From Nemertoderma westbladi (taxonomy: Eukaryota > Animalia > Xenacoelomorpha), in assembly GCA_032718475.1 (NCBI GenBank), contig JAUCBJ010001719.1:2812-66811 (forward strand): a DNA stretch of 64,000 nt, written 5' to 3'. Position 1 is the first letter of the stretch, and the number at the start of each line of letters is the position of its first letter. The notes beneath the pieces are model-generated. The model did no database searches and was not told where the DNA came from. It was given only the letters and a program-made list of their open reading frames with translations. Shown piece after piece: positions 10,465 through 61,492 of the stretch. The position numbers and the translations under genes were made by a program.

Positions 10465-10597
10465 CATCCTAAATATTACATAGTTAATATTTATAAAAAT
10501 CTATTAAAACAAATGTTATAATAGAGTAAATGCACGCAAATAAACTCTAAGGAGTTTGTAAACCGAGAAAATCTATAAATCAAGATCTGTTAAAATT

Positions 10598-14799: not shown

Positions 14800-14829
14800 G
14801 GGGGGGGGTGGGTGGGGCTGGAGGAAGGG

Positions 14830-15721: not shown

Positions 15722-16514
15722 CTGTACTCATTGTTCAAAGATCTGGTGTTACCCGAACAATTAGTCGATGGCATCCGGTTGTGGGCTCCCTAGATATTCG
15801 CCCATCCTACCTAGCCGGATTGAGACGCGGACATTTAATATCGCCGTTCAACCCGTATAATCGTACCAGTTTAACCCCGATACAACCTGTCACCGAGGTG
15901 GAGGAGAGAGTTGAACGAAACGCGTTAGACACTAGTCGACAAAAGATCGGAAAAGGAACCTACGATTGTTTAGAGAAACGTAAAAGGCAGCAGCAAGTCC
16001 AAGCGGTAAACGAATTAGCTTTATCTCAGTTCGATCGGGAAATCCAGAACCTCGAAGAAGATATCGAACTTGGACGACCCTACTCTCTGAAAGAGTTTTG
16101 GACGAATGCTTCCAACGACAAGCGGAGGAAAATCAGCTCGAGGAGAAGCATATCGATTCCAACAGAGCCCGAGAATGCGAGTCGGAAAGAACCATCAATC
16201 CGAGGAAATTTCTCACTACACACGGTCCACCTACCGCTCTCATGCAAACGACCCGTCAGGGACCAGTAAGGGCTGCTGTCTTAAAACGCACTCTCAAGGT
16301 TGTTCAACCTCATTCCACTGAGGTTGATACCGATCAACCGGGTACCTCGACCGGCGGACACATCGACCGTAACCCTAAACCTTCCGATGCAATTGTATTG
16401 CACCCTTCACCCAGGAGTTATAGCCCTCCTAGTAAAGTGGCTCGCCCGGAAGAGATAAGGACTCTTGCTAGCCTCAAAAAACCGCGTAAACGCCGTTCTC
16501 GTAAGAAAGACTAA
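14963..16514 (+). pseudogene. Accessory ORF of BEL copy 1, second copy through to C-terminus
   Basis: Frameshifted ORFs 14982-15326, 15467-15793, 15781-16269, 16098-16514; ends KKPRKRRSRKKD; internal deletion relative to copy 2. Confidence 0.8.
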
Positions 16515-16592
16515 CTGTTTAGAGTATTTTTATATTTTAGAAACTGTGATTTTTTATATTTTATAGAATTAAATCCCATTTTCTGGGAGCGG

Positions 16593-22306: not shown

Positions 22307-22791
22307 CCAGGTTGGAATTTATGTAGAGTTTGCTCAACATGTGTGGCGCGCATTTAGGATCCTGGCGCGAAGGAACAGGGGCGTGTGGCGCGCATTTAGG
22401 ATCCTGACGCAAAGGAACAGGGGCGTGTGGCGCGCATTGAGGATCCTGGCGCGGAAATGGATGTCATGTACAGTAGCAAAATGCATTGGCATGGCAACAT
22501 ATCCAGCCACTCTAATTGAAATTATATCGGTCTACCAGTAGAGTCTATTTTTAAAAAGAGTTAGGCCTAGGCCTTAAAGATTTTCGCTCACTTCGGTCGC
22601 GTTTGTATATTATATGCCTGCCCACTGTACGCTCTACTGTGTCTACTCTTATTCATCATTCTAATAACTTTTAATTTAAAAATTTAATGGTCAATCTTTC
22701 AATGGTTGGCGCGCTTTGAATGTCATGGCTGGCGCGCTTTTCGTTTAACCCGAATCCGTGTGGCGCGCTTTTTGTCAATATTCCATATAGG
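22307..22791. mobile_element. hAT-like MITE (duplicate at 27451-27935)
   Basis: 8-bp TSD GAGCAGAC; imperfect TIR CCAGGTTGGAAT / ATTCCATATAGG; GGCGCGC subterminal repeats. Confidence 0.7.
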
Positions 22792-24568: not shown

Positions 24569-27500
24569 CAGTTACCCCCAGGTGAAGAATACCAGGTTTT
24601 CACCAAATATACAGGTTACAGAAGGGCTGAATCTAACCAAAACAATAAACGAATTAGTATATGTACAGGTTATAAGAAGAAATAAGCGATATAAAACACT
24701 TAATAAAGATAAATTAAAAAAAATAAATAATCTTCATATATAAAATTCCAATAAAAAGTCGACCGAAAAGTGAAATCCTGGTATTCTTCACAAGGGCGAT
24801 TAACTGTGGAGCGAGCAACGTAAGTCCAGGTGAGCCTTAGCATATGGGTATAAGTGGTGGACCCGTCTGTCGTTGTCATCGTCGGAAATGTTTGAACGCT
24901 AATAAGTCGGTCAATCTTGGAAAAATAATGTTTCACTACTAGTCTGCTAGTATGTACGACTAATATGTTTCAATTATGTTCCAATTTTGTTTCAACTAAC
25001 AGAGACATAATAGTGGCAGTAACAAGCAAACAAGGAATATCTTATAAGGTCGCGGTTCACACCTTTAAGCAATAAGCATAACTCTGCTTCGGCAGCAGAA
25101 GTACATACAGTACTACAGTAGTCCCAAAGTCTTCATCCAAAGTAGAGTTACGAATGAATCATGCTTAAAAGAGTGAACCGGCCTTAACCCGAGAGATTTT
25201 ATTGAAAGTTCAAGAGTTCTTCCTACTGCCTACATAATAGGTTTTCAAAATAATAAGTTTCCATCTCTGTGTCACAATGAAAACATTTAAGCCAATAAGA
25301 GGATTCAGGAAAGTTCCCTTTGGGCCTATGTAAATGATTGAGCCAATCAGGTTACAATTTTCTGGCTTCAGTCCGACGTTTGTCCAGACAACAAAGAGCG
25401 GATTCTTACATTATAATGCTATAATTCAAATTGACCGCGCATATTTGGGCTTTTAATTGACAATCCGCAATCCGTAGTCCGCAGTCCGCAGTCCGCTCTT
25501 TACATGCACCCCCAGCATGCATGCATTGTGCATAGGCAGATAGGCCTATAGTTTAGTGCTCTATCCTAACTGCCTGAATCTGGAATCCATACCACCAGCA
25601 GCTGAGCAGACCAGTAGCAGTACTGCAGACCAGTCTGCGCTGCCGCTGCTGCCAGAGTGATAAACTCATCTCCCCGTATCCTGATATCTGTTAGCGTTAG
25701 GCCTATCTGTTTTCAGAACGCTCCTACCTGCTGACCTGCCTACTGCTGTACTGCCTGACTGCTGTACTTTCCTACCGGGTAGTAAAATTCTATCAGGCAT
25801 CAGGCATTGTTCAACCTATAGGCCTACTGCTGTACTGCTATATCAGTCTGTCAGTAGGCCTATGTAGCAGTAGGCAGGTAGGCCTACTGCTATTTCAGTA
25901 TTTCCGCTTCGCGCAGCACACATTTAAAATGGGCGACATTTCCTCAATTTTCATTAAATTTAGGCCTATCTGAAATTCGATAGGCCTATACCAGTATACA
26001 GACTGACAGTGACAGACAGTCCAGTCCTGCAGTCCAGCATAGGCAGATAGGCAGATAGGTAGTCAGGTAGTATTTTATGATGTTAACAAAATTTTATCAT
26101 GAGAAGTCGGGCTCGATCTGTCAATCGGAGCTCCGGCCTCCGGCTCCGGCCATTTTGGCACCTCCGGCTCCTGCTCCGGCTCCATTATTGCCGGACAGCC
26201 GGAGTTAATTTTTTAATAAAATATTATATTTCGTGCATGCACGAATAGTACTTATAGTTACTTCTGTACTTATAGTTATAATTTAATTTACTTATAGTGT
26301 AGGGTAAGACGGGGTAAAATGGGACATGGGGTAAAATGGGACATGTCGGGGTAAAATGGGACATGCATATTTTTGGCCAATTTTTTGTTAAAGAACACTT
26401 TTAGGTCTGTTTTAATATATTTTTAATTGAGAAACTAAATGTTACATTTTTATATAGCACATACTGACATATGATGAGATCATGATCACACGATGAAAGC
26501 AATTTGTTAAGCGCGTATACATTTTAACGTTAGGACACTTCCTATCATTCATTTTCTTCGATATTATATGCATTAAAATCGCAATCATCGATTTAGTGGG
26601 TGTAGAACAAGTCCAAATGTTCAAATTCCTGATCGTTTTTGAGTTACATAGATTTGTAGTTTTACCTTGATAGATGTAGATAGGTGTAACTCCGTAAATA
26701 ATGCCTAGATGATTTTTCTCTGTGATTGTTGAGTTTTATAGCTTTTATAGCTACTACTGCATTTCAGCCATTCCAGCGTAACGGTCGTGACATTCCGCAT
26801 GGGTTTCCGGTATTAATGAGTATTCTAAGGGCACATAGAACAGTCGGGCACTTTGTCAATATTGACATGTGTCAATATTGACAGGTAAAGCTAATTTCTC
26901 CAGGATGGAGCATGTCAAAATTGACATGGACATGTCAATATTGACATTTTTTTACCTGACGTGTTCAAATATTTCCATACGTGTTTTCTAAATATAAAAA
27001 TCGAAATTATAAGTAAATTAGAAACTTTTGACCGTGCGGAAAATTTTTTCACCGTGCCGTTTAGTTAATATAAATACTTTAAGTTTTTCTCATGTTAAAA
27101 TTGACATACATGTCAAAATTGACATGTAATGATGAGAACATAAGTGTGGGGTTAGGCTGTAGGCCACGCCACCCTATAGACTCTACTATAACTAGGGCTC
27201 AACAGAAGCTTCGGCTTCGGTTCAGGCCGAAGTTTGGCAATTTCGGTTCGGCTTCTGCAATTGATACTACAGAAGCCCGGAGCAAACTTTGCTAAATATT
27301 CCAAGTATTACATTGACTGATTGAGCTAAGACCAGAAAGACAGTAAGACTAATCAATCTGTCCATCGTGTTGTACAAATTAATTTTGGGGTGTAAACGTT
27401 AAGCAGACACTAGTGCAGAGCAGACAGTCAGACAGTGGTGCAGAGCAGACCCAGGTTGGAATTTATGTAGAGTTTGCTCAACATGTGTGGCGCGCATTTA

Positions 27501-27935
27501 GGATCCTGGCGCGAAGGAACAGGGGCGTGTGGCGCGCATTTAGGATCCTGACGCAAAGGAACAGGGGCGTGTGGCGCGCATTGAGGATCCTGGCGCGGAA
27601 ATGGATGTCATGTACAGTAGCAAAATGCATTGGCATGGCAACATATCCAGCCACTCTAATTGAAATTATATCGGTCTACCAGTAGAGTCTATTTTTAAAA
27701 AGAGTTAGGCCTAGGCCTTAAAGATTTTCGCTCACTTCGGTCGCGTTTGTATATTATATGCCTGCCCACTGTACGCTCTACTGTGTCTACTCTTATTCAT
27801 CATTCTAATAACTTTTAATTTAAAAATTTAATGGTCAATCTTTCAATGGTTGGCGCGCTTTGAATGTCATGGCTGGCGCGCTTTTCGTTTAACCCGAATC
27901 CGTGTGGCGCGCTTTTTGTCAATATTCCATATAGG

Positions 27936-29010
27936 GAGCAGACAGTGATGCAGACACCTGGTGCAGACAGTGGTGCCGACACTGGTGCAGACAGTGGTGC
28001 AGACAGTGGTGCGGACACTGGTGCAGACACTGGTGCAGACAGTGGTGCAGACACTGGTGCAGACATTGGTGCAGACAGTGGTGCAGACAGTGGTGTAGAC
28101 AGTGGTGTAGTGTGCAGACATTGGTGCAGAGTGGTGCGGACACTGGTGCAGACAATGGTGCAGACAGTGGTGCAGACAGTGGTGCAGACTTTGGTGCAGA
28201 CACTGGTGCAGACACTGGTGCAGACTGTGGTGCAGACACTGGTGCAGACATTGGTGCAGACACTGGTGCAGACAGTGGTGCAGACAGTGGTGCGGACACT
28301 GGTGCAGACAGTGGTGCAGACACCTGGTCCAGACAGTGGTGCAGACACTGGTGCAGACAGTGGTGCAGACAGTGATGCAGACAGTGATGCAGACACCTGG
28401 TGCAGACACCTGGTGCAGACAGTGGTGCAGACATTGGTGCAGACAGTGGTGCAGACAGAGGTGCGGACAGTGGTGCAGACAGTGGTGCAGACACCTGGTG
28501 CAGACAGTGGTGCAGACAGTGGTGCAGACAGTGGTGCAGACACTGGTGCAGACAGTGGTGTGGACACTGGTGCAGACAATGGTGCAGACAGTGGTGCAGA
28601 CACCTGGTGCAGACAGTGGTGCAGACACTGGTAAAGACTTTGGTGCAGACAGTGGAGCAGACACTGGTGCAGACAGTGGTGCAGACATTGGTGCAGACAC
28701 TGGTGCAGACAGTGGTGCGGACACTGGTGCAGACAGTGGTGCAGACAGTGTTGCAGACACCTGGTGCAGACAGTGATGCAGACAATGATGCAGACACCTG
28801 GTGCAGACACTGGTGCAAACAGTGGTGCAGACACTGGTGCATACATTGGTGCAGACAGTGGTGCGGACACTGGTGCAGACACCTGGTGCAGACAGTGGTG
28901 CAGACACTAGTGCAGACAGTGGTGCAGACACTGGTGCAAACAGTGGTGCAGACAGTGGTGCAGACAGTGGTGCAGATACTGGCTGACTGGTGCATACAGT
29001 GGTGCAGACA
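27936..29010. repeat. 12-bp minisatellite GGTGCAGACA(G/C)T, second array
   Basis: Directly visible tandem array. Confidence 0.97.
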
Positions 29011-39619: not shown

Positions 39620-40981
39620 ATTAATATAGCGAACTCATAGACATATGCTTCACACAACCAGCTCGCTTGGTATTAATACCGCTGCCGAGGTATCAGGTAT
39701 CGCATGGAGTTGGGTACGAGACAAACCCGATTAACTTTAAATCAATGTCTATTCCGAGTTCGATGGCTTCGAAAATAAAGTTCGCTACAGCAAACGTGCT
39801 GGTGGTTTCGAAGTTGGGTGCTGCTCCCCACTCTTTGAGTGTGATAGCACTCACTTCTGTCCAGTACATTTTGTACTTCACTCCTCCCCTCTCCTCCCAC
39901 ATGCTTCTTTCCCAACCGCTTATTCGTCACCCCAACCGCTTTTTCGTCCCCCCCCCCCCCCCCCCCCCCCCCTCCATTCCATAGGCGACGGTTCCCTGCA
40001 TCCACCCGTGTTAGTTGTACTGGTACTAATTCTTGCCATAGTTTGGGATACTACAGTATATTTAACAATTTACAGCACCCCGACAGTTCATGATAAAAAA
40101 TAATAAGAAAAAATAAGAAGTTCGATGGTAAGTATCCAACGAAGGGAGTGTATTGCTTCAACTGTTGTATAAAGTAGAATCAGATTTTTACAGTAGTTAT
40201 TATGTCGTAACACAAGATCGTTTGTTATCATGTAGGCTCAAATGTTAATTTGAGTGGTTCTTTGTAAATGAGTTTCAAATAATGATTTCATAATGGCGCA
40301 AGGATATTCTTTAAGGTTGGTGCGCGGCGAGTTACAACTTCCAATTTATCTCGTATCCAAATCAAAACGTCAAATGTATTTTTTAGAAAAGCATCATGTT
40401 TGCTACCAAACTCGTGTAAATAATATTCAACAAACTTGCCCAAACGCTCAGTAACTGATCCACAGGCGGAATGAATATACCTCAATGGATGATTTTCCTT
40501 GTGTGTTTTCACATTTCCAAATACTGTACCTGGTTGTGGGTCCTGGCCAATGAGCCAATCCTTGCATTCAATGATTGTTTTCAAATTTTCCATTTTAAAA
40601 CAAATTGAGTCACTTTAACTAAATAATCTACAGAAGGATCCAAATCGTGCTGTTTAAAGCAAGATTTATCTTCTAAGTGTCGTTCAACACTACTACAATA
40701 TGTTGAATTTTTCAGAACAACAAATCGTTGTGAACCTTTATCTTGAATCCTAATAACACTTTCGCTCCCTATGGTGCCACATGTTTTCTTTAATTTAGTT
40801 AAAGCAATTCTCTCACTTTTACTTAAATTATCTTTTGTTTTAATTCGTTTAGATACATCAAATAAATCAGTTCTAACCTCATTCAAAAATTGTTCTAGAA
40901 TCGGATTGTTAGAGTTCAATGAAAAACGAGATTTACCGGGCCACGGTTTTTTTCGTGGATGAAAATCAGATGCTGTTTCGC
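39620..40981 (-). pseudogene. Penelope-like element RT N-terminus with internal deletion and decayed C-terminal remnants
   Basis: DNLSKSERIALTKLKK, VIRIQDKG, FGNVKTHK..HPLRYIHS..GSVTE, then a jump to RRAPTLKNIL; weak GIY-YIG C-terminal similarity (GINTK). Confidence 0.8.
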
Positions 40982-43455
40982 GAAGGTAATGCAAGCTAGT
41001 ATGTTGTTGACGATGACTCACTATCGGAACGAAGGTAATGCAAGCTAGTATGTCGTTCAGGATGACTCACTATCGGCACAAAGGTAATGCAAGCTAGTAT
41101 GTCGCTGAGGGTGACTCACTATCGACACGAAGGTAATGCAAGCGAGTATGTCGTTGAGGCTGACTCACTATCGGCACTAAGGTAATGCAAGCTAGTATGT
41201 CGTTGAGGGTGACTCACTATCGGCACTAAGGTAATGCAAGCTAGTATGTCGTTTAGGGTGACTCATTATAGGCACGAAGGTAATGCAAGCGAGTATGTCG
41301 TTAAGGCTGACTCACTATCGGCACTAAGGTAATGCAAGCTAGTATGTCGTTGAGGGTGACTCATTATCGGCACGAAGGTAATGCAAGCTAGTATGTCGTT
41401 GAGGGTGACTCACTATCGGCACTAAGGTAATGCAAGCTAGTATGTCGTTCAGGGTGACTCATTATAGGCACGAAGGTAATGCAAGCTAGTATGTCGCTGA
41501 GGGTGACTCACTATCGACACGAAGGTAATGCAAGCGAGTATGTCGTTGAGGCTGACTCACTATCGGCACTAAGGTAATGCAAGCTAGTATGTCGTTCAGG
41601 GTGACTCACTATCGGCACGAAAGTAATGCAAGCTAGTATGTCGTTCAGGGTGACTCATTATAGGCACGAAGGTAATGCAAGCTAGTATGTCGTTCAGGAT
41701 GACTCACTATCGGCACAAAGGTAATGCAAGCTAGTATGTCGTTGAGGGTGACTCACTATCGGCACTAAGGTAATGCAAGCTAGTATGTCGCTGAGGGTGA
41801 CTCACTATCGGCACGAAGGTAATGCAAGCGAGTATGTCGTTCAGGGTGACTCACTATCGGCACTAAGGTAATGCAAGCTAGTATGTCGTTCAGGGTGACT
41901 CACTATCGACACGAAGGTAATGCAAGCGAGTATGTCGTTGAGGCTGACTCACTATCGGCACTAAGGTAATGCAAGCTAGTATGTCGTTGAGGGTGACTCA
42001 CTATCGGCACTAAGGTAATGCAAGCTAGTATGTCGCTGAGGGTGACTCACTATCGGCACGAAGGTAATGCAAGCGAGTATGTCGTTCAGGGTGACCCACT
42101 ATCGGCACGAAGGTAATGCAAGCTAGTATGTCGTTGAGGCTGACTCACTATCGGCACTAAGGTAATGCAAGCTAGTATGTCGCTGAGGGTGACTCACTAT
42201 CGGCGCTAAGGTAATGCAAGCTAGTATGTCGCTGAGGGTGACTCACTATCGGCACGAAGGTAATGCAAGCGAGTATGTCGTTCAGGATGACTCACTATCG
42301 GCACTAAGGTAATGCAAGCTAGTATGTTGTTGAGGGTGACTCACTATCGGCACTAAGGTAATGCAAGCTAGTATGTCGCTGAGGGTGACTCACTATCGGC
42401 ACTAAGGTAATGCAAGCTAGTATGTCGCTGAGGGTGACTCATTATCGGCACTAAGGTAATGCAAGCTAGTATGTCGCTGAGGGTGACTCACTATCGGCAC
42501 GAAGGTAATGCAAGCGAGTATGTCGTTCAGGGTGACTCACTATCGGCACGAAGGTAATGCAAGCTAGTATGTCGTTGAGGGTGACTCACTATCGGCACGA
42601 AGGTAATGCAAGCGAGTATGTCGTTGAGGGTGACTCACTATCAGCACTAAGGTAATGCAAGCTAGTATGTCGTTCAGGGTGACTCACTATCGACACGAAG
42701 GTAATGCAAGCTAGTATGTCGTTGAGGGTGACTCACTATCGGCACGAAGGTAATGCAAGCGAGTATGTCGTTGAGGGTGACTCACTATCGGCACGAAGGT
42801 AATGCAAGCGAGTATGTCGTTGAGGGTGACTCACTATCGGCACTAAGGTAATGCAAGCTAGTATGTCATTGAGGGTGACTCACTATTGGCACGAAGATAA
42901 CGCAAGCGAGTATGTCGTTGAGGGTGACTCACTATCGGCACTAAGGTAATGCAAGCTAGTATGTCGCTGAGGGTGACTCATTATAGGCACGAAGGTAATG
43001 CAAGCTAGTATGTCGTTCATGGTGACTCATTATCGGCACGAAGGTAATGCAAGCTAGTATGTCGTTCAGGGTGACTCATTATCGGCATGAAGGTAATGCA
43101 AGCTAGTTTGTCGTTGAGGGTGACTCACTATCGGCACGAAGGTAATGCAAGCGAGTATGTCGTTGAGGGTGACTCACTATCGGCACGAAGGTAATGCAAG
43201 CTAGTATGTCGTTCAGGATGACTCACTATCGGCACGAAGGTAATGCAAGCGAGTATGTCGTTGAGGGTGACTCACTATTGGCATGAAGGTAATGCAAGCT
43301 AGTATGTCGTTCAGGATGACTCACTATCGGCACGAAGGTAATGCAAGCGAGTATGTCGTTGAGGGTGACTCATTCTCAGCACGAAGGTAATGCAAGCGAG
43401 TATGTCGTTGAGGGTGACTCACTATCGACACGAAGGTAATGCAAGCGAGTATGTC
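40982..43455. repeat. 49-bp tandem array, about 50 copies
   Basis: Unit GAAGGTAATGCAAGCTAGTATGTCGTTGAGGGTGACTCACTATCGGCAC with a few recurrent variant positions. Confidence 0.98.
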
Positions 43456-44230: not shown

Positions 44231-44818
44231 AGTTGAATATCGATATCAACTGGAGCCAGGGCCTGGCATTGTAGGACCGCGGTCAGTATGTAAAATGTAT
44301 GTTGGTTGCAGTAGGTAGGCCTACGGCAGTAACAGTGCTACATAGTGCTCAGTTAATCAGCGGAAGCCAGCGGAAGTTAATACACTAATAATTTTCGATT
44401 CCGGTTTTAGGGCTTTTGGTATAACCATCGTCGAAAGCTCCATTTTAAAACGTGCTCTCCTGATCCTCTTTGATTAGATGATAGTTTCACGATCGTCGAT
44501 CTTTAGGGGAAGACAAGTTGATGGAAGGGGTAAAGGTTTGATGGGCAACCCGGAAAACCGGCGCCAACGCAAATTACGGTACTTAAAATATAGCTCTATA
44601 CAGCAGAATTAGCCTTCAGTAGTTCAACTGGTATGTATGTGTTGGATTACACTCCTGTTGCATGATGACAGACATTCATTTGTAAATAGGATCCAAACGT
44701 ATAGTTTGTCCTACGTAGTCACGTTTTGATTGCCCAACGCCGATACGTTTCTATATGTGCTATTATATCGAACCGTGTAGGTTGTCCAGTGGCGTCACGT
44801 TTCGTTTACCAAACACTG

Positions 44819-45969
44819 TGTAAAAGCTTTTGTGGGATATAACTGGCCCTTTTGCTTCGCAATCCAGTTTCCCTTAATGCGCTCAAATACTCTAAAGAAA
44901 AACTCCCTAACTCAAATGATGCAAGCTACCGGCTGATTGGCTGATTTGCTGTATGTATGGCCTCTTTGTTCTGTTCGATCAACCAACCAGAGCAAGGTCA
45001 ACCAAGCAGAGTGATTCATCCTGTGTGTTGGCCAAGGGCTGCAAAAACCCGAATAGTTCAGCATTTAGACATTCGTGGAATCTGTGGAATATGGAGCTCT
45101 GCCAATGAGAGCTTTTCCTCTTTGTGCTGAAAGCTACCTGCAACAGCTCACAGGGTTCAGTGTGTTGGTTTTTCCAGAGCCTAGAACATCGGCTATGGAG
45201 TTATTCTGAATTATTCCAACATTAGAACGACTTTAATTATAAGAACACATAACTGTTACCGTACGGTACCTACTGCTGTATTGCACATTATTTACTGCGA
45301 TTTACTGTTTGTTATTAATTGTATCAGTTGTTTACATATTGTTATTTGGAGAATAACGATAAACGATCAGAAACCCCGATCTTCTTGATACACTAAGGTT
45401 AGAGAGACCGGTTACATATAGCAATTGCGACTTATATTATCGTGGTTTGTAGTGAATTGAATGCTATTTTATAGGCCCTACAAATGTCGGTTGCTATTCT
45501 CTTTATATATGATTAAAATCAGTGACTATCGGCAATTCAGTGTGCAGCGGTGTGCAATAGTCTGTATGTGCTTGTCCGTGTAACAAAGCATCTCCTAAAG
45601 AATGCACCTTATGTGTAACTTATAATCCATTCCGTTGTGTTTAGTGTAAGCCATAGCTCTGTTTATATAGATAGAGCGCCACGTCCTAAAGGAACTGCTA
45701 ATATTTCCCGAAAGTGAATGATATTTGTCAGAGATTATATATTAACGATCAATCGAATAGTACGGTAGGCCTGCACCGCAATCAAATTAAAGCATCCGAA
45801 TCCAGTCTCCCGGGTATATCCAGCGGGTGAATGGTCGCGCATAGACTGGCTTCGGCTAATGTTGGATTTATTTGTGTCAAATACTTGTCATAGGCTAAAG
45901 TCGATTTATAACCTAGAAGACATATAGATTTGGTGGGTTAAACTGCCAAAGGTCTTAAAAGCGCAAACA
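44819..45969 (+). repeat. 5' LTR of BEL copy 2
   Basis: TGTAAAAGC...GCGCAAACA; about 7 differences from the 3' LTR. Confidence 0.97.
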
Positions 45970-45980
45970 GTAACAGTTAT
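45970..45980 (+). promoter_or_regulatory. Non-tRNA primer-binding site, complementary to own LTR 45249-45259
   Basis: GTAACAGTTAT is the exact reverse complement of ATAACTGTTAC. Confidence 0.85.
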
Positions 45981-46322
45981 AATTCTGATTGCAGTGTAGG
46001 CAATAAATACAGTTTACTATTGTTCTGATAAGAACAATAACGGTTATTGCTTCTTTATTGCCGTAAGCAATAAAGCTGAAGTACCGGTCGACCGGTAACC
46101 TGTAGGCCTAACTACCTAACCACCGGAACCGGTACTTACAGCAGTATACTGGTAGGTACATCAGTATTATTTCGATTGTGATATATTGTGTATATTGTAG
46201 GCTGTTAGGGGATTAGGGATTGATCACCCCTTATTCCTTTGCATGATTTACTTATTTCTGTCAGTTTTATTTACTAGTAGGCTAATATTGAGCAGAAGAC
46301 GTGTAAGCCTGCTCAGATCGTA

Positions 46323-46920
46323 CAGATAATTTGTAGGCTGGACTGTTGTCTGACTGTTGATAGGTCTGAACGGATTGCAGTGCATGTAGAGTGTATGTCC
46401 GATAAAGTGCCGGTTAGGAACGTAGGGGCAGCTAGAGCTGTAAGGTAAACCCCCCCCCCCCCCCGAAAGAATAAGTCGTACTACTAGGTTAGAACGCATA
46501 CTAACTAACCATTTCGGAGTCTGCATGTCCTGTAGTTTATTTAGGCTTGATAGTAGTCTGCCAGCGTTTGGTCTGTACTTTGTTTGTATAATCTGTACAG
46601 GTACCGTAATATTTCTCATTCAGATAATTTATAGGCTAGATTGTTGTCTGGCTGTTGTTAGGTCTTACGAGATTGTGGTGTGTGTAGAGTGTATGTCCGA
46701 TAAAGTGCCGGTTAGGAAAGTAGGGGCATCTAGAGCTGTAAGGTAAATCCCCCCCCCCCCCCCCCCCGAAAGAATAAGTCGTACTACTCGGTTAGAACGC
46801 ATACTAACTAACCATTTCGGAGTCTGCACATACTGTAGTTTATTTGGGCTTGATAGTAGTCTGCCAGCGTTTGGTTTGTATTTTGTTTGAGTAGTTTGTA
46901 CGGGTAGCGTAATATTTATT
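46323..46920 (+). repeat. Tandem duplication of about 298 bp in the 5' leader, each unit with a poly(C) tract
   Basis: CAGATAATTT... units at 46323 and 46621; the C-tract region is single copy, with only C5, in copy 3. Confidence 0.85.
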
Positions 46921-48252
46921 ATTCAGAGTTTATGCGATTATTCGCAACATTCATAACCCCAAGTTTATTCCTACAGTAATTGTGCTTGTTATACATACCG
47001 TTATAGTTAAATTAACCCCGGTACTACATCAGGGCTGCTTGGCATAGGTAAAGACTGGTGATTTTGTGCCCCGGTCACTCCAGCAGATGCCATGGTTCTT
47101 TTAGCTGTTCAAGTATTTTTAACTACTGATAATTTGTTGTACAAGTACTTGTACCTAATTTAGGGTTTAGTGTACAGTGCTTTCCGAAGGTAATTAGCGT
47201 GTAGGCAGTATATTTGTGTTGTAAAGTGGTTAATAGGCACGTTGGTTCTGGTAGACCGCGGTAATTAACTTCTAGGTAGGAACACTCCGTGATACATAAC
47301 CTAGTACTTATAGCGATACGGCTATAAGTCGTCAGACGGTGGTATTTTTCCTATCTGGACAACGCAGTATATTTACTACTACTTATTATTTTCAAATGCC
47401 ATAGTACTCTGTCCGTTGTAATAACCAGATAATCTAACCCTTTGTTAGGCTGGTTTGTAGACTTCTTGTAAAATTACCCTAAAAATTCGTACGTGTAATT
47501 TTTGTGTTTATTTAGAGATTGTAATCTCACCCCGAATTGTATGTAATTTGTAGTATTAAGTAACTTAGGTAAATTAGAATTATTTGTTTTAGTGTCCAAC
47601 AAGTAGCACTTCACTGAGAGCACACAGCTTCTGTGTGGTGACTCTTTCCCAGAAATAATAACATTTATTTCAAATATTGACAAAAACCCATTAAAACGGG
47701 TATATATATTATAAATCAACTCAAACGATTTATAAATAGTAGGCCTGCCATACAACAACTAGGTCTCAATATCAGTTGGACTACTGCTCAAATAACGGTA
47801 ATAAAGTAAGTTAAAGTAACCAAGTAACCCCTAAAATTCAGAAATTCAATTATTCTAAAATAATTGATATACCGGTATTTACAATAGGCTTATTATATTT
47901 ATTTCTATAAATTTAGGCGGCAATTATTCCGGTATTCTGTAATTAATTCTAGTCCATAATTATACTTATATATACTATAAGTGTAAGCTGTATACCGGTA
48001 TTCACGATAGGCCTATTATATATTTATATATATTTGTGCTGAAATTACATACCGGTATTCTGTGACAAACCTAGTCTGTAATAATACTTATATATATTGT
48101 AAGTGTATACCGGTATTCTAATATATTATATATATATCACGTTACACTGAGTAACAGTATCGGTAATTAATTACTAGGCTAACAGTGATACTGAATTACT
48201 AGACTTGCTTAAACTGTAATATAGCAGTAGGCATTCAACTGTACAAACAAAC

Positions 48253-51200
48253 ATGTCTGACTCAAAACGGGCACTGTCAGATAGTCTTTTGAAAGGTGTT
48301 AGAATGAGTCTTCGACTTGGACAGTGTCTTGAAAGGATAGAAGACGGAAAAGAAGGGGAAAGAAAAGTAGCAGCGGCAGAAGCGGAAAGAAAAGCGGCAG
48401 AGGCAGTGGCAGAAGCAGAACAGAAGGCGTCTGAAGCGACTACCCAACTAGAGATTGAAAGCCTTCAGGCGAAACAAGATTACTTGAAAAAACAAACCAG
48501 AAGACAGGGATTTGCCCCCTCCGATGAGGGTGATGTAAGAGATCCTGAAAGTGGAGGTAATAAATCTCGTTCAAGCGGACGTAGAAGAACGCCACACCGT
48601 CGGAGGTTGTCTGATTTCCCTCTTGGGGTGAGAGGGCGAATCTTGTATCATTCATTAGGTAATCTTGAACCCACAGACCAAATTATTACAGTAGAAAGAC
48701 TCCCTACTATAGTAGATGAGCCTGAAATAATTAGGGAGGTGGAGGTTGTCTGATTTCCCTCTTGGGGTGAGAGGGCGAATCTTGTATCATTCATTAGGTA
48801 ATCTTGAACCCACAGACCAAATTATTACAGTAGAAAGACTCCCTACTATAGTAGATAAGCCTGAAATAATTAGGCCTGTTCTCGAAGCCACCCCTTCGGT
48901 GATAGAGACACCTGTACTCCCAGAACCTACCTCTAAATTCCCTTTGCACAGCACGAAACTACCTGTGCCCAGTAGGACTGTTCCCGAGTCCGAACCCATC
49001 CCGGACGCCGAGCGAGATATCAAGAATTTATCGCCCGTCGTCTCTCGCTTGCCCGCTACTACGTTGGCGACTCCCGCTTCGGCGGTCGAGTGGGTAGCTG
49101 AGGGACGACGGGCGATGGGTCTCCTGCTCGGGCAGCTGAGGGAACATTGTAAATGTTCCTCCCAGCAGGTCCGGGAGTTGGAAGGGACTGTTCAGCAGTT
49201 AAAGGGAGCAGTAAGAGAGGGTAGGTTAGCGTTGCAAGAAGTGCAGCAGAGTATCGCGTCAGAACGTGATAAGTTAGTAAATTTACAAAAGGGTATACCA
49301 CCACCCTCTGTAACAATGTGTCAACCTGTTAGGTCTGAAGTATTTCATGCGCAAGGTGTGGAGCCTACACGCATCTATACTGCTAGTGAAGTAGAAACTC
49401 CTATAGTAAACCCTATTAAGGGTAATTATAAACCTGTTGACAGTGATATTCCATATAGACTTGATAATAATCCGCGAAATTTATATACCGATAACTCGAT
49501 ATTAAATAATACGATGGCCCAAGAAAGTTTTACGCGTCAAATGGCTAGAACCGAAGCCCGTCAAGCGGTAAAGATGGGAGAGATCGTCAAGTTCAATGGA
49601 GATGAGATGAAATGGTTACCTTTTAATGAATATTACAAAGATAACATACATAACTCCGTGTTATCTAACGGAGAAAAGCTTAGATTCCTCATCGAGTGCT
49701 TGGAAGGATCTCCCAAGTTAATGGCGTTAAAGTTTATTGGACATCCAGATGGATTAAGACAAGTTTGGGATACATTAAACATCAGGTATGGTAATAGGAA
49801 TAACATAGCTAGGTATTTGTATGCAAGATTAATGGCGCCCCGAAAGTTTCTTAGCAGCGGGATTATAGAGTTTTCCGACGAGATTCAGGAGATCTGTAGA
49901 CAGCTAGATTGGTTAGGTAAGTCTCGTGAATACCAGAATTCTATGGTTGTAGGAGCCTTAGCATCTACTTTGCCCAAGGGTGGAGTAGGTATACGCTGGG
50001 ACAAGAAAGTGTTATATATGATGGAACAACAATGAAGAGACCCTACCATGGCTGATCTCATGTCATTCTTAGATGGAGAGGTAAAATTACAGCTTCTAAA
50101 ACAGTCCAGAGAGAAGACACCGGAAAATAAGGTAAGTGAGAAACCCGTTTCTAGGAGAAAGGTAATACCAGTGTGTTATACAGACGACGGCGAAAGCCAG
50201 GCTTCTCAAGAGGAAGACAGCGGGAAAGACACTGAAAGATCTTACTATGACAACACAACGCCTAAGGACGTAAGTAAATTCAAGTCTCGAACCAATGACA
50301 GGAGAGAACAGGTAAGAAAAACTCCTCCCACGTCTCCTAAAAGAATTCACGGAAGAAAGCCCGAGGAAAGAACGAGCGTGCACCACACAGCACATGTTAA
50401 AGTAAGTAACATCAAGCCCAAATGTGTGTTGTGCGACGGGCCCCACCGTTTAAATGTGTGTAATGAATTCCTAAAGAAATCATTAAAGGATAGACGTGAA
50501 GTCATGTGGGATAAGCGGTTGTGTTATAATTGTCTCAGACGAGGACACCAATGGCGAACCTGTTACTCCGACGCAAGGTGTGCGAAGTGCGGCGCGAAAC
50601 ATCATATTTTGTTGCACAGCGAATTCGAAAGAAACAGCCTGAGTCAGGTAAGTGAGTCCGAACTACATGTCCAATTCAGTGATGTGAACGACACTGACCA
50701 AAGTTCTGAGATGGAAGGATTCTATACGGACGAATTCTCCGACCAAAGTTCTGAAATGGAAGGATTCTATACGGACGAATTCTCAGACGAAAACGAATCC
50801 TGTTACTTAATAAATTCCGCAGTGTATCGAGCACTTACGTATGAGAAGGAAACCGACAGTGAGCTCCCCCTAACTACTTCTGATCGACAACCATCTTGGA
50901 AAGCGCCAACTTCCAATGTAGGAATCCGAGAATTTCCTGTAGTACAGTTAAGGGTCCACGGACCTAAAAGGAGTTATATAGTGAATGCCCTCCTTGACTC
51001 CGGTAGCACAGGAACATTCATCGACAAAGAACTAGCCGAGGACATCTTTGCTGGACAACCCAAGTTCCGAACTAAGTTAAACATGTCAGGAATTATGCAG
51101 GTTTGAAAATCTACATTAATAGCGGATTATTATGTAGGTGCGTTGTCCACCCCCCAGGATGGACTAGGAGAACACAGCATAAGGTCAGTAAAAATGGTGG

Positions 51201-51897
51201 CGATAAAGAACTTCGCTACCAGCCAAGTAGAACCTTATAACTGGGATGAGGACGATTCCACCCAGCAGCTTAATATACCTAGATTCAACACAGATTACCC
51301 TGGAGTGCAAATACTCATCGGCCAAAATGCGCATGAGGCGCTTGAGACATTGGAGAAACGGCCTGCTCAACCGCAACCGCTACAAGCCTATGCGGGAAGA
51401 ACTAGAGTAGGTTGGTACCTTACTGGCCCTTCCCGTAGAACTCTCATAGAAAGGTCACCAAAAGAACGGGTATACCAAGTAAGCGAATGGGAAGCGGAGA
51501 GCAGTGAGGTAGACGACCCAACTGAGGGAACACCATACTCCTCAGATAATGACGATATTAACTCCAATGTAGATCAATGGAGACATTGCCCCGAGACGAT
51601 TAATCTAGCCGGCATCGCTTACAGAGGAGCAACTCCTTAAGAACTGACAGATACTCCAGACCAGTTAGGTGGACCCGACTTCCTAAATAAAGAAGATGAA
51701 TGGCCTCCTCATCTTACCCCGGCGAAGATTAGACAGGCCAAGGGAGCGGAGAAAGTAACACAACCACTCAATCGCCCAGCTGGTCGTTTATGTTTACTGG
51801 AAAGAGACCGAAAACTGTCCGGAAACTATGGAAGGCAAGATACTCTTCCCACGACCACCTCCCTAATCCAACAAATATCTAGGGACACCATAACGTA
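48253..51897 (+). pseudogene. gag-protease of BEL copy 2 with pol remnants
   Basis: Three BEL-type zinc knuckles (CVLCDGPHRLNVC, CYNCLRRGHQWRTC, CAKCGAKHHILLH), ALLDSGS; deletion junctions near 51565 and 51756; internal 139-bp and 45-bp duplications. Confidence 0.93.
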
Positions 51898-53540
51898 ACA
51901 ACATACGGAGTGGGTGTGTGACTATATTATTTTATATTTATTTTTATTATTTTATATTATGTATGTATTATTGTGTAATTTTATTATAATCGTTTTCTTT
52001 AATTTCATTTAGTAGAATGTTATTTTAGCGATTATTTAGTAGATTAGTGCAATATATTAGCGTTTATTACTTAATTACCTGTATATTATATATTTAGTGC
52101 GACGGCGAGAAATAATTCTTTTTCTCATTCCTTACTGTCCGTATTACATTATAAATACGTGACTACAGTAAGATGAAATCTCCGTACTTATTAAAGTACA
52201 ATAAAGCTCCTACTATATTTAAGTATTATTGGTAGGCAGAGTATTAGGAATGCAAAGTTCAGATCCTCGTGTCTCGGCTAAACCAAGCTCTGGGTAGACC
52301 TTGGAAACGACTTGCCTCTTCACACTGACATTGCTTCGTGCGATATTGCTCTCATACCGTATATTAAATAATACATATAGTAGCGTGATGTCCCTTTAAC
52401 AGTAGCGTAAAACGCAAAATAAATCTGTTAAACCCTTTGACCATCTGCAATTCTAGTCGATTAAGATATCGCGGCACCCACCGATATACTTGAAAGACAA
52501 AATTCTAGAATCAGTGGTTAACGTCCCCAGACAAGTTCTGGAATAAACTGGTGCCCATCCTAAATATTAATTATTAATATTTACAAAATCTGTCAAATTT
52601 TAGATCCTTTAAAATTCTAGTCGATTAAGATATCGTAGCACTTACCGATACTCTTAAAAGGACACATCCCTAGAATCAAGGATCCCAGTCCCCAGACTTG
52701 TTCTGGAATAAAATTGTGTCTGTTTAATATTAAATAATAAAATTACGGGAATAAATTTAAATTCATCTTTTAATGAATTTGATAAATTGTTATTTTATAC
52801 AATTTATAATATTCCCAAAATCCCATTAATTAATAGATCATGGGAGCGGAGATTCACCTATTAAGTGTATTAGTGCGCGAGAATCTCCAATATAGAGTCA
52901 ATAGCCGATAAAATTCATAAAATCATATATAAAGATGATATTGACCATTAAAGACTTACTATTAAATAGCATCCCAGATCTGTATGCATGGGAATTACCC
53001 TAATTCTACCGCTAGCTTTCCATAATGTCACCATAGCAACAACCACGCTAGAATTAGAAGCGAGTTAACAGAACAATAAAAAGCTTGCTCATTGACTAGC
53101 ATACGGAATAAATAGCACACCGCTAGTATCCAAGGATACATAATAACAACATGACATTCTGGAAGGCACTTGACTAACGGACAAATGACCCGAATGTGTG
53201 ATAGAATGTGTACCATTTGTGACAGTTACGTGGAATTTGTGCGTTTGTAGGTGAATGTTACTACTAAGGTGTGTTTACAGTAGCGATTCGCAATTGTGAA
53301 AGTAGCCCTAACTCTCCAGTAAGAACCTGAAGTATATCTAAGCCTTTGGGACGGACAGTGGAGTGACTCGTGCTGGTTGTTGTAGTCGTTGTGCAGCTAC
53401 GAAGTTGGCGATAGGCACATCGGCGAAAGTACACCAGCGCTGAGGATCTCGCACTGTCCGGGGGCAGAGAGGGGTAGGCAGCGACACCCGCTCGCCTAAA
53501 TATAAACTCATTATAATATGGATAAACTTATATAGCAGAT

Positions 53541-55061
53541 ATGATTGAGTTGATAGAAGATGATCTTGGTATCAGGGAGCGATATACTCTACCTTTACAA
53601 GCGTTTGTTGAAAGCTTGATACGCTGCGACGCTGGTCCAACTACTACGGAGGACGATGGTCGTTATATCTAACCGCCAATGTCCCGGGAGCAACTTGCGT
53701 GTGGGTTGGACTGTAGAAAATTCACCGCTCGCTATACGCATCGTAATGGTACGTATATGGACTTCTTAACTACTGGTCATCCTATCGACCTACACGATAC
53801 GAACGATATAGACACCAAAAGGGAAATGGTTTATTTAAATATCATACCCAGCGGAAGCGGAACGATAAACTGAGACTCGAACACGAAAATTCTATTCGAA
53901 ACCGACTCGAAAGTGCAGATGTTGAAGAGCCGGATAAACGCAGCGACTTCACCAAAATATCTGGAATTCTTGAGAGAAACATATCTCGATATTACCAGTC
54001 AACAGAATCTAGAAACTCGATATCCTCAAGGTATACATCATGACCGCATGGTAGAACTCAAACGGCTCTATTCCACTATGATGTATCTTACCGCCGATCG
54101 ATCGCTACCTGTTGTACCGGATAGCTTCGAACAGATGGAGGAATATTGTAAGCTGGAGAAAGATCACTCGCGTTTCCCCTACAAGACGTGCGTCTTTGGT
54201 ATTATTGCGATGAATGCCCTAGACCCAACCAACAAACGGAAAGACCTAAACATCCGCGGAGACGTTGCACTAAACACGGTTTTACTCGCTATACTGGCGG
54301 GAGTTTCGAGCGAAATTTGTTTGACGTATCACCTACGCTCGTTCGACTCAGACGATCCTTAAATAAACCAATGATCAGAGTTTCGGAATACTCGATCAGA
54401 CCTCCTCATTCCCTAGTGAGACCTCAGACTCTTGATCCTATTAGTATGACGGATCCTCCCGAGCTGTACTCACTGTTCAAAGATCTAGTGTTACCTGAAC
54501 AATTAGTCGGTGGCACCCCGGTTGTGGGCTTCCTAGATATTAGCCCATCCTACCTAGCCGGATTGGGACGCGGACATTTAATATCACCGTTTAACCCTTA
54601 CCATCGTCCCGGCTTAACACGATATAACCTGTCACCAAAGTGGCGGAGAGCGTTGTACCCAATGAGTTGGACGCTATTCTACAAAGATCAGAAAAGAACT
54701 TACGCTTGTTCAGATAAACGTAAATTGCACTAGCAAGTCCAAGCCGTAAACAAAGTAACTTTATCTCAGTTCGATTGGGAAATCCAGAATCTCTAAGAAG
54801 TTATCGAACTTGGACGACCCTATTCTCTGCGAGAGTTTTGGATGAACGTATCCAGCTACAAGCGGAGGAAAATCAGCTCGAGGAGAAGCATATCGAAACG
54901 GCGGATACCCCAACCATAATCCTACACCTTCTGATACAATCATATTGCACCCTTCACCCAGGAGTTATAGCCCTCCTAGTAAAGTGGCTCCCCCCAAAGA
55001 GAAAAGGACTCTTGCTAGCTCTAAAAAACTGCGTAAACGCCGTCCACGCAAGACAGACTAA
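53541..55061 (+). pseudogene. Accessory ORF of BEL copy 2
   Basis: MIELIEDDLGIRERYTLPLQAFVESLIR..., homologous to copy 1 with different frameshifts. Confidence 0.8.
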
Positions 55062-55139
55062 CTGTTTAGAGTATTTTTATATTTTAGAAACTGTGATTTT
55101 TTATATTTTATAGAATTAAATCCCATTTTCTGGGAGCGG

Positions 55140-56290
55140 TGTAAAAGCTTTTGTGGGATATAACTGGCCCTTTTGCTTCGCAATCCAGTTTCCCTTAATG
55201 CGCTCAAATACTCTAAAGAAAAACTCCCTAACTCAAATGATGCAAGCTACCGGCTGATTGGCTGATTTGCTGTACGTATGGCCTCTTTGTTCTGTTCGAT
55301 CAACCAACCAGAGCAAGGTCAACCAAGCAGAGTGATTCATCCTGTGTGTTGGCCAAGGGCTGCAAAAACCCGAATAGTTCGGCATTTAGACATTCGTGGA
55401 ATCTGTGGAATATGGAGCTCTGCCAATGAGAGCTTTTCCTCTTTGTGCTGAAAGCTACCTGCAACAGCTCACAGGGTTCAGTGTGTTGGTTTTTCCAGAG
55501 CCTAGAACATCGGCTATGGAGTTATTCTGAATTATTCCAACATTAGAACGACTTTAATTATAAGAACACATAACTGTTACCGTACGGTACCTACTGCTGT
55601 ATTGCACATTATTTACTGCGATTTACTGTTTGTTATTAATTGTATCAGTTGTTTACATATTGTTATTTGGAGAATAACGATAAACGATCAGAAACCCCGA
55701 TCTTCTTGATACACTAAGGTTAGAGAGACCGGTTACATATAGCAATTGCGACTTATATTATCGTGGTTTGTAGTGAATTGAATGCTATTTTATAGGCCCT
55801 ACAAATGTCGGTTGCTATTCTCTTTATATATGATTAAAATCATTGACTATCGGCAATTCAGTGTGCAGCGGTGTGCAATAGTCTGTATGTGCTTGTCCGT
55901 GTAACAAAGCATCTCCTAAAGAATGCGCCTTATGTGTAACTTATAATCCATTCCGTTGTGTTTAGTGTAAGCCATAGCTCTGTTTATATAGATAGAGCGC
56001 CACGTCCTAAAGGAACTGCTAATATTTCCCGAAAGTGAATGATATTTGTCAGAGATTATATATTAACGATCAATCGAATAGTACGGTAGGCCTGCACCGC
56101 AATCAAATTAAAGCATCCGAATCCAGTCTCCCGGGTATATCCAGCGGGTGAATGGTCGTGCATAGACTGGCTTCGGCTAATGTTGGATTTATTTGTGTCA
56201 AATACTTGTCATAGGCTAAAGTCGATTTATAACCTAGAAGACATATAGATTTGGCGGGTTAAACTGCCAAAGGTCTTAAAAGCGCGAACA
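55140..56290 (+). repeat. 3' LTR of BEL copy 2
   Basis: Preceded by GGGAGCGG, followed by TSD CACTG. Confidence 0.97.
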
Positions 56291-56295
56291 CACTG

Positions 56296-58292: not shown

Positions 58293-59519
58293 TGTAAAAG
58301 CCTTTGCTGAATTGCCCCGTTATTTTTATTATCTTTTACATTAAAATACTCTGTAGTTGATTTAATAAGTGTAAGAGACCGTATTATTGCTGTATCGGTG
58401 TTTTTAGAGGATCTAAGACCTATTTCCTCCGTATGTGTACTGTGAAAGGCATATTTTATGATTCTATGGCAATTCGTGACGCAAAGGGGTGATAGCTACT
58501 CTTGAACAGTAGTTACTATGACTACGGTTAACAGCTGACATTCATACGTGTTGATTTCCTTTGTTCTACGGCGTCTCTCAGTTCAGTCAGCCAATTAGAG
58601 CGTTTTTGTGGCTCCTTGTACAGAAAATTTCCGAGAAATGACGCAATGCCTATGTGCAGTGTTTACATTCAGTCCTGAGCCAAAGAAAGAACGGCTTGGA
58701 AGTATTTTGTGCTTTACTGTTTTTAGTCTTACACTAGTAGGTTTAATTACAAGGACATATATCCTTTAACTACCTGACTCATGGAATCACTGCTGACTGA
58801 TCATACATGCTGACTGCTGAAACATTGCAAACTCATAACAATCAGTGTTTTCATTGTTGTTTTATACTGCTATTTACTGTCAGTTCTTCATAATATGGTT
58901 GATGAATTATTATATTTGGAATAACGATAAATAACCCCGAAACCCAATATTCTTGATATACCGAAGGTAAGAGAGAAAGGTTACCAATAACGATTGTGAC
59001 TTATGTTAAAGTGGTTTGAAGTGAATCCAATGTTATTTGATAGACCCTACATGAGTCAGCCTGTGTTCCTTTTATATGTGACTAAAATCAGTGAAGATTG
59101 GCAGATTAGTGTGCAGCATTGTGTATGAGTGAGTCTGTTAAAGAAGCAATTCCTAAAGAATGCGCCATATATGTGAATTATAATTAAGCCATATCGTTGT
59201 GAGTAGTTTAAGTCATAACTCTGTTTATATAGATAAAGCGCCACGTCCTAAAGGAACTGTTAATATTCCCGAAGGTGAATAATATTGTCAGAGATTATAT
59301 AATACTGTCAGTCGAATAATACATTAGGCTTACATAGCAATAAAATTAAACCGTCGAACCCAATCTCCCGGGAATCTCCAGCGGGTGAATGGTCGCGCAC
59401 GGATTGGTTTCGACTAGTGTAGTGAATCAAATACTTGTCAAAGACTAAAAACTGATTTAATATCTAGAAGACATCTTAATTTGGTGGGTTAAACTGCCAA
59501 AGGTCTGAAAGCGCGAACA
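58293..59519 (+). repeat. 5' LTR of BEL copy 3
   Basis: TGTAAAAGCC...GCGCGAACA, homologous to the other LTRs especially in the 3' half. Confidence 0.92.
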
Positions 59520-59531
59520 TTAAAGGATATA
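59520..59531 (+). promoter_or_regulatory. Non-tRNA primer-binding site, complementary to own LTR 58758-58769
   Basis: TTAAAGGATATA is the exact reverse complement of TATATCCTTTAA. Confidence 0.85.
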
Positions 59532-61492
59532 GCTTCTTTGTTGCAGTAAGCAATAAAGTTGAAAGTACCGGTCAACCGGTAAACCTGAACGGTACATCTG
59601 TAGGTCAGTAGGCCCAACAGCTAGAACCGGTACTGCCGTATAAGTACACTAGTATTATTCGATTTGATTGTTGCATACCGGTAGGCTGTTTAAGGGATTA
59701 GGGATTGATCACCCCTTATACCTTTATATGGTTTACTTATTTCTGTCAAGTTTTATTTATTTGTAGGCCAGTATTGAACAGAAGGCGTGTAAGCCTGATC
59801 AGATAGTACAGACGATTTGTAGGCTGAGCTGTTGTCTGATTGCTGTTAAGTCCGAACGAATTGCAGTGTGTGTAGATCACCTACTAGATAATTTGTAGGC
59901 TGGATAGTTGTCTGGCTGTTATTAGGTCTGAACGGATTGCCGCGTGTGTAGATCATCTGTCCGATTAAGTACGATTAGGCAGTAGGGGCAGCGAACGCTG
60001 TAAGGTAATCCCCCAACTAAAGAATAAGTCGCACTACTGGGTTAGAGCGCATACTCCCTAATCATTTCGGAGTCTGCATATACCGTAGTTTGTTTAGGCT
60101 TGATAGTAGTCTGTCAGTGTTCGGTCTGTATTTTGTTTGAGTAGTTTGTACGCGTAGCGTAATATTTATTATTCAGAGTTTATGCGATTATCCGCAACAT
60201 TCATTCCCCAAGTTTGTTCCTACAGTAATTGTGTTTGTTATACATACCGCTATAGTTAAATTAACCCCGGTACTACACGGGCTGCTTGGCGTAGGTAAAG
60301 ACTGGTGATTTTGTGCATCGGTCACTCCAGCAGATGCCGTGGTTCTTTTAGCTGTTCAAGTATATTTAACTACTGATTGTCTGTTATATAAGTACTCGTA
60401 CCTAATTTAGGGTTTAGTGTACAGTACTTTCCGAAGTAATTATTGTAGACATTATATTTGTGTTGTAAAGTGGTTGATAGGCACATTCGATTAGCTCTAT
60501 TAACTTCTAGGTAGGAACACTCCGTGATACATAACGTAGAACCTATAGCGATACGGCTATAGGTCGTCAGGCGGTGGTATTTTCCTATCTAGACAACGCA
60601 GTGTATTTACTACTACTTATTATTTCAAATACCGTAGTACTCTGGCCGTTGTAATAACCAGTTTTCTAACCCTTTGTTAGGCTGGTTTGTAGACTTCTTG
60701 TAAAATTACCCTAAAAATTCGTATTTGTGTTTTTGTAAATTTTTGTGTTTATTTAGAGATTGTAATCTCAACCCGAATTGTACGTAATTCGTAGTATTAA
60801 GTAACTTAGGTAAATTAGAATTATTTGTTTTAGTGTCCTATACGTAACACTTCACTGAAAGCGCACCGCTTTGTGTAGTGATTACTCCCCAGAAATAATA
60901 ACATTTATTTCAAACATAGACAAAACCCATTAAAACGGGTATATATATTATAAATCAAATCTAACGATTTATAAATAGTAGGCCTACCATATAACAATTA
61001 GGTCTCAATATCAGTTGGACTACTGCTTAAATAACGGTAATAAAGTAAGTTAAAGTAACCAAGTAACCCTACAGTTCAGAAATTCAATTATTCTAAAATA
61101 ATTGATATACCGGTATTTACGATAGGCCTATTATAATATTTATATTTGTGCTGAAAGCATACCGGTATTCTGTAATTAATTCAGTTAATAATTATACTTA
61201 TATATACACTATAAACTGTAAGCTGTGTACCGGTATTCCCGATAGGCCTATTATATATTTAGATATATTTGTGCTAAATTTATACCGGTATTCTGTGATA
61301 AACCTAGTCTGTAATAATACTTATATAGTTATATATACTATAAGTATACCGGTATTCTAATATATTATATATATACTACGCTACATTGAGTAGCAGTACC
61401 GGTAATTAATTATTAGGCTAGCAGTTAATACTGAGTTACTAGACTTGCTCAAACTGTAATATAGCAGTAGACATTCAACGGTATACATAGTC

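Follow-up and report, generated by a model that had tools for sequence, protein, structure and literature searches.

Likely self-priming in a BEL/Pao retrotransposon family of Nemertoderma westbladi with a primer-binding site complementary to its own LTR

The BEL/Pao retrotransposon family represented in the window (the whole stretch of 64,000 nucleotides of Nemertoderma westbladi DNA analysed here) likely primes reverse transcription with its own RNA, as judged from the sequences of its copies and relatives. The primer-binding site (PBS) of copy 2 is the 11-nt sequence GTAACAGTTAT at 45970-45980, which contains no TGG, lies flush with the end of the 5' LTR and is the exact complement of a segment of that same LTR at 45249-45259, the candidate self-primer (in the following, the slot); the original prediction is confirmed in these points. 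All features of the copies described below lie on the forward strand.

The element and its primer-binding site

Copy 2 (44819-56290) is a BEL/Pao element carrying deletions. Its 5' LTR (44819-45969) and 3' LTR (55140-56290) are 1151 bp each and 99.4% alike (7 differences), start with TGT and end with ACA, and are flanked by a 5-bp target-site duplication, CACTG, at 44814-44818 on the left and 56291-56295 on the right; the 5' LTR end at 45969, which had been set by this duplication and the 3' LTR, holds. The broken gag-protease region (48220-51898; DUF1759, E 1.6e-13) has lost most of the reverse transcriptase (RT), RNase H and integrase, with deletion junctions near 51567/51568 and 51756/51757. 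A broken extra ORF region (53520-55075) upstream of the 3' LTR is common to copies 1 and 2, with counterparts in copy 1 at 11548-12344 and 14979-16514, and gave no match in Pfam or in the Atlas. The 3' LTR is adjoined by a short PPT-like motif (55130-55139), which, together with its AT-rich upstream context, is repeated at 52841, about 2.3 kb inside copy 2 and before the extra ORF, and also at 10842; the motif at 52841 is possibly a central PPT, or an old 3' end that predates capture of the ORF.

The identification as BEL/Pao in the original prediction is borne out by the Pfam domains DUF1759, aspartyl protease, Peptidase_A17 and DUF5641, found in 6 of the 17 ORF pieces scanned (E 1.6e-13, 1.7e-16 and 1e-20 for Gag DUF1759, the Peptidase_A17 region and DUF5641, respectively), with the order protease, RT, RNase H, integrase. 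The gag-pol region of copy 1 (4096-9803) is 5'-truncated and contains stops and frameshifts, and encodes protease, RT (with YMDD), RNase H, integrase and DUF5641; motifs of both RT and RNase H are present. The RT matches listed, at 40-47%, are coral, fish, bivalve and echinoderm polyproteins of the BEL/Pao type, which carry PF05380. LTRs of 1151-1228 bp and the short PPT-like motif agree with the description of BEL/Pao elements (LTRs of 0.2-1.2 kb, and a PPT), and the Pfam domains are those of BEL/Pao and not those of a Gypsy-type Pol as in Tf1/sushi. The 18-nt tRNA PBS of the BEL/Pao description was not found, as the first 9 nt lack TGG in 11 of 11 elements (copies 2 and 3, and nine relatives); in its place is a PBS of the Tf1 type, which is the complement of about 11 nt in the LTR of the same element and lies at the LTR end. 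In the ICTV profile of the Belpaoviridae, which gives LTRs of 0.2-1.2 kb, the tRNA PBS is descriptive and the classification rests on Pol (PMC8742986).

The 11-mer of the slot occurs twice in the window, at 45249 and at its 3' LTR twin (55570-55580), and the match extended to a 12-mer is absent from the 64 kb, so the helix of slot and PBS ends flush at the LTR edge. The nearest TGG past the 5' LTR lies at +181. A complement of at least 11 nt at any place in the LTR has a chance of 5.7e-4 from base composition and turned up in 4 of 3000 shuffles; the former value is of the same order as the 3e-4 estimated originally and about twice as large. Taken alone, the match of copy 2 is a single post hoc match, and LTR matches of at least 11 nt are reached from 8 of the 9169 internal start positions of copy 2, the PBS itself among the 8. 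This last count is what speaks for chance, an explanation that we consider practically negligible in view of the position of the match, the covariation described below, and the passing of 11 of 11 elements against a background of 0-0.5%.

Copy 2 has a second, degenerate PBS-plus-hairpin unit (46030-46075), which is a tandem duplication of about 70-76 nt and matches the slot with 10 pairs, with 5 additional pairs upstream; contigs that skip 65-76 nt at this unit were observed. A 9-bp hairpin directly behind the PBS is conserved (46061-46083 and 59535-59557) and conceals AATAAA; its 5' arm might also pair with the motif upstream of the slot, and a switch between the two pairings is possible.

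Other copies and distant relatives

The window holds three diverged copies, i.e. copy 1 (about 4096-17820), copy 2, and copy 3 (from 58293), which runs off the window end. The leader and gag of copy 3 are 87% identical to those of copy 2, and its 5' LTR (58293-59519) is 78% identical over the last 600 nt and about 60% upstream of the slot. The PBS of copy 3 (59520-59531) differs from that of copy 2 at 4 of 11 positions, and all 4 changes are matched in its slot (58759-58769, within a 12-nt complement at 58758-58769), which lies at the homologous LTR position behind the same conserved motif as the slot of copy 2, and is the sole match in the window; the per-site chance of an 11-nt match is 9e-7. 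The helices of copies 2 and 3 both stop flush at the LTR edge, and cross-matches between a site and the LTRs of the other window copies are 4-6 nt only. The complementarity is thus kept in another subfamily, a point on which the original prediction had been made to depend.

Copy 1 is without a 5' end. The slot in its 3' LTR (16593-17820) lies at 17006-17016 and shows 4 differences in 11 positions to that of each other copy; the missing PBS of copy 1 was predicted from the slot before comparison with contigs from four DNA runs of the host (three samples), which were aligned on the copy 3 junction (best 22 of 56 loose-end rows). Among the loose-end rows listed, the cell behind 59523 is in agreement with the prediction at positions 5-11 for run X1 (7 contigs, agreement 0.56) and departs from it by a single mismatch for runs X2 and X3; in run X4, the lone contig at this place disagrees. 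The change 59520 T>A corresponds to position 1 of the prediction and is listed for 44, 41 and 20 contigs. The contig data are supportive of the site predicted for copy 1, and the cells from which they come are mixed and not linked to the slot on one molecule.

Several other features were observed in the window. A Gypsy-type RT-RNase H/integrase fragment is inserted in copy 1 (12290-14830) and flanked by an 892-bp duplication of 98.9% identity (11399-12290 and 14830-15721). A tRNA-like stretch at 2332-2402 with A-box and B-box-like motifs, which was called neither by ARAGORN nor by Rfam, precedes a TATA and several CCAAT boxes that seem to belong to another element, by which copy 1 is truncated near 4096. 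A 49-bp satellite in 50 copies and a 3.8-kb tandem duplication (99.2%, with 12-bp minisatellites) occupy 40981-43455 and 19417-28358, respectively.

Distant relatives were obtained by an RT-alignment search, by which 14 BEL loci (L003-L016; RT identity 40-51%) were fetched from genome bins; these BEL/Pao contigs lie inside bacterial GTDB genome bins and presumably represent co-assembled DNA of animal hosts. Nine loci with an LTR and a 5' leader were testable (L003, L004, L005, L006, L007, L008, L010, L011 and L016). Left out before counting were L009, L012 and L015 (contig without LTR) and L013 (5' end interrupted by another LTR element); L014, with an undefined LTR end and one 11-nt match with a good donor and a poor acceptor, was left out as well. 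A uniform rule was applied, i.e. an 11-nt complement 0-6 nt past the LTR end, contiguous or across GT[AG][AT]G..YAG.

All nine testable relatives followed this rule and lack TGG in the first 9 nt; of the internal control windows, 0-0.5% passed. Only in L005, L008 and L010 does an LTR pair fix the LTR end; in L003, L004, L006, L007, L011 and L016, this end was read off a terminal motif, partly after the match had been seen. The self-complements are 11-12 nt long and start 0-5 nt past the LTR end. In 8 of the 9 (L003, L004, L005, L006, L007, L008, L011 and L016) they run across a canonical splice junction within the LTR, the donors of which are GTGAGT, GTAAGT or GTATGT, and the first exon supplies just 3-9 nt of the primer; in L010, the complement is contiguous (offset 4). 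The splicing is predicted from the DNA; with a stricter acceptor filter, 5 of 6 relatives pass (L003 fails), and random leaders reach 11 nt at 1 in 1200. Matches to the own LTR are 11-12 nt, compared with at most 10 nt in cross pairs, and between the sisters L005 and L008 three exon-1 bases differ and the sites have changed to match. Over the 11 elements, 9 helices comprise exactly 11 Watson-Crick pairs and 2 comprise 12.

The diversity of these sites bears on priming by a host tRNA fragment or small RNA, with the LTR match being incidental. The ICTV profile gives tRNA-Arg or tRNA-Gly priming for the family (PMC8742986), and half-tRNA primers exist in Copia according to the available text of PMC6317226; however, one host RNA cannot fit all 11 sites, since they differ and each matches its own LTR and not those of the others, and we regard a host primer as extremely unlikely.

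In an RT tree of 28 rows without named references, the window RT is a long, unstarred branch that is unplaced among the fish, coral, echinoderm and bivalve matches; its row falls into a starred 22-row set (98/93) together with L003, L004, L006 and L007, and L005, L008, L010 and L011 fall outside. Since the relatives are thus found both inside and outside this set, the self-complementary PBS is, by the sequences compared, a lineage-wide trait. The independent origin of self-priming that was put forward originally stands for the BEL lineage and falls for the window element alone, as the nine testable relatives share its signature. RT searches of viral contigs gave no match, and a scan of viral contigs for the LTR motif gave 0 matches; two metagenome matches to the LTR motif were rejected as chance matches of 20-26 nt.

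Primer 3' ends are frequently TTAC or TTAA, and L007 and copy 2 (45256-45264) have 9 nt in common across the predicted cut, which is perhaps a cleavage preference. The element inserted in the BEL element of L013 (1248-5967, minus strand) is a separate LTR element with 331-bp LTRs, and its leader resembles what we take to be a Copia half-tRNA-iMet site.

Position of the primer in the transcript

A CCAAT box with a putative promoter role is located 147 nt upstream of the slot in copy 2 (45102-45106), at -175 in copy 1 and at -168 in copy 3, and no TATA was found at -30 of the slot in any of the three window copies. A conserved motif just upstream of the slot (45232-45248) is present in all three copies, with an ATTAYA hexamer at -13. 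With the leader behind the PBS, this motif is a candidate to form a second helix (p=0.044 in copy 3, p=0.57 for the first unit of copy 2; over 11 elements, Fisher p=0.063, not significant), and can also pair with the duplicated unit of copy 2.

Downstream of the primer, a candidate intron inside the LTR (45399-45737) has donor-, branch- and acceptor-like signals in all three copies; a joint for it was not among the 7 joints listed, and no GT..AG joints were found in run X5 (guessed to be RNA; other organism, small share). A 25-nt motif (45675-45699) that is identical in all three LTRs and in the deepest-covered bins of the contig runs sits just upstream of a branch-point-like site, and a similar CCTAAAG core is found near 45594. 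A poly(A)-signal-like element (45778-45791) is conserved 182-191 nt before the LTR end in all three copies and would have the corresponding role. A conserved U5 stem is predicted at 45835-45966; it closes 3 nt before the PBS and has 40 pairs, 2 of them changed on both sides, in a comparison of four rows only. Tf1 reportedly has a U5-IR stem beside its PBS.

These signals have to be weighed against a cap primer as in Tf1, for which transcription would start at 45249 and the first 11 nt would be cut off as the primer. The number of 11 nt is the Tf1 primer length (available text of PMC7175516), the slot starts with an A after a pyrimidine in all three window copies, as an initiator would, and LTR identity, which is 77-80% over the last 600 nt, falls to about 60% upstream of the slot. 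Folding leans the same way: in copy 3, the helix was present in 2 of 2 runs begun at the slot and in 0 of 2 runs begun 100 or 170 nt upstream, a modelled result that would count slightly against an internal start, although long-range folding is weak evidence. The cap primer is opposed by the absence of TATA at -30 and the location of CCAAT at -147 to -175, by the conservation of the upstream motif with its ability to pair in copy 3, and by the relatives, whose helices are also 11 bp with just 3-9 nt from the first exon, so that a length of 11 nt does not imply the cap. In L003, L005, L008 and L011, the donor is preceded by TATA boxes at a distance of 100-240 nt; on account of this distance and of the small first-exon share, the primers of the spliced relatives are read as internal, and their capped first 11 nt can hardly be the primer. 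Since the junction primers of the relatives draw so little from the first exon, the primer of the window family, too, is probably an LTR slot internal to the transcript, some tens to about 150 bases from the cap, and we consider a cap primer rather unlikely. The internal primer suggested by the original prediction is thereby favoured by the relatives and by the CCAAT distances, and the folding leans slightly the other way.

The ATTAYA hexamer, 18 nt before the slot end in all three copies, would suit a primer made from an RNA 3' end, in which case the 3' end of the slot would be a cleavage/poly(A) site and the RNA 3' end (at the twin, 55570-55580) or a short 5' LTR transcript would prime; hexamers of the ATTAYA type serve as minor poly(A) signals. 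However, a better one, of the AATAAA type, is conserved 182-191 nt before the LTR end, and in L005, L008, L011 and L016 poly(A) cleavage cannot form the primer end, because AATAAA lies 0-12 nt downstream of the primer. We regard a 3'-end primer as very unlikely.

It is also improbable that the helix is a structural switch (for packaging, dimerisation or translation control), with another RNA or a protein as primer. The helix of copy 2 competes poorly in folding (1 of 6 runs) and the offsets of the relatives range from 0 to 5 nt, which would count for such a switch, but the helix is found in the place of the PBS with no TGG site beside it in 11 of 11 elements, and 9 of the 11 helices are exactly 11 bp.

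Spliceosomal first-step cleavage as the source of the primer end was rejected, as GT follows the slot in copy 2 only and is 1 nt off, and copies 2 and 3 do without a spliced complement (at best, spliced matches of <8 nt and 8 nt, respectively). Rfam gave 0 matches at gathering score in the window and two weak chance matches in the LTR region; hence, no known ribozyme is predicted at the LTR.

Proposed mechanism and comparison with known systems

For initiation from an internal primer, Pol II would start upstream of the slot, and the slot would pair with the PBS across about 710-804 nt of R-U5; beyond a bulge, a short second helix may add to this pairing. The RNase H of the RT, in analogy to Tf1, would cut the RNA at the slot's 3' end, giving a 3'-OH opposite the first base past the LTR; for the deleted copy 2, the cutting RNase H would be supplied in trans. 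RT would copy U5-R up to the cut and then jump, and the sequence upstream of the cut would be regained from the 3' LTR. The PBS would be rewritten when plus-strand synthesis copies about 11 nt of the primer, and this would account for the joint change of both sites as well as the 9 of 11 helices of exactly 11 bp. For most relatives, removal of an LTR intron by splicing would build the same primer; the window family and L010 would have a contiguous primer. At somewhat better than even probability, the sequences suggest that a large aquatic BEL/Pao branch has dropped tRNA priming for a third kind of initiation, with an internal and mostly splice-assembled 11-bp primer and with splicing gating reverse transcription, and that the window family is the intron-independent form.

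If these elements do prime themselves, self-priming has evolved in each of the three LTR superfamilies, and its convergence upon an 11-bp helix would indicate that the geometry of RT/RNase H sets a limit. With an internal or splice-built primer, the mechanics would be new and replication would be tied to host splicing, and the element would be free from tRNA supply and, presumably, from tRNA-fragment silencing; LTR annotation by tRNA match would miss such PBSs. The predictions on the primer are single-base and testable by RNA-end sequencing. Among BEL-type elements, Cer7 of C. elegans has reportedly been proposed to encode its own primer, which is said to be a tRNA-like RNA encoded in the 3' internal region and not an LTR slot.

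A literature search found no paper on self-priming or splice-made primers in BEL/Pao, with most subscription papers, Repbase, GyDB and the supplements of PMC6317226 lying outside its scope; in a term search, the texts of PMC3118150 and PMC554778 contained no PBS or tRNA term. The window family resembles the Belpaoviridae (Semotivirus) in Gag DUF1759, the order protease-RT-RNase H-integrase, DUF5641 and LTR size. It differs in that the 18-nt PBS for tRNA-Arg or tRNA-Gly is absent in the 11 of 11 elements examined here; this PBS is given in the ICTV profile, which calls replication of the family poorly understood (PMC8742986) and agrees with the original statement that BEL/Pao elements are described as tRNA-primed.

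The precedent for self-priming named originally, Tf1/sushi, is not the only one: in the available text of PMC6317226, self-priming is predicted for Tcn1 and also for the plant Ty1/copia TAR lineage (Houba, Osr-1). The TAR lineage is thus alike in that self-priming is predicted from sequence in a second superfamily, and no splice-made or internal primer is mentioned for it in that text. For Tf1, the primer is the transcript's initial 11 bases, freed by an RNase H cut, according to the available parts of PMC7175516, PMC4600332, PMC5341516, PMC5445492 and PMC6934838; Sushi LTRs have a late AATAAA (PMC3601003, available part). With Tf1 and Tf2 of S. pombe, Tj1 of S. japonicus, and the Tf1/sushi and Tcn1 chromoviruses, as covered by the accessible portions of these sources, the window family shares a PBS complementary to 11 nt of its own LTR RNA, the lack of a tRNA, and the need for a cut that frees a 3'-OH. 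In contrast to the Tf1 group, which belongs to the Ty3/gypsy superfamily, the window family belongs to BEL/Pao and has 710-804 nt of R-U5 between primer and PBS; it would work like Tf1 and, by its sequence, is not a member of the Tf1/sushi group.
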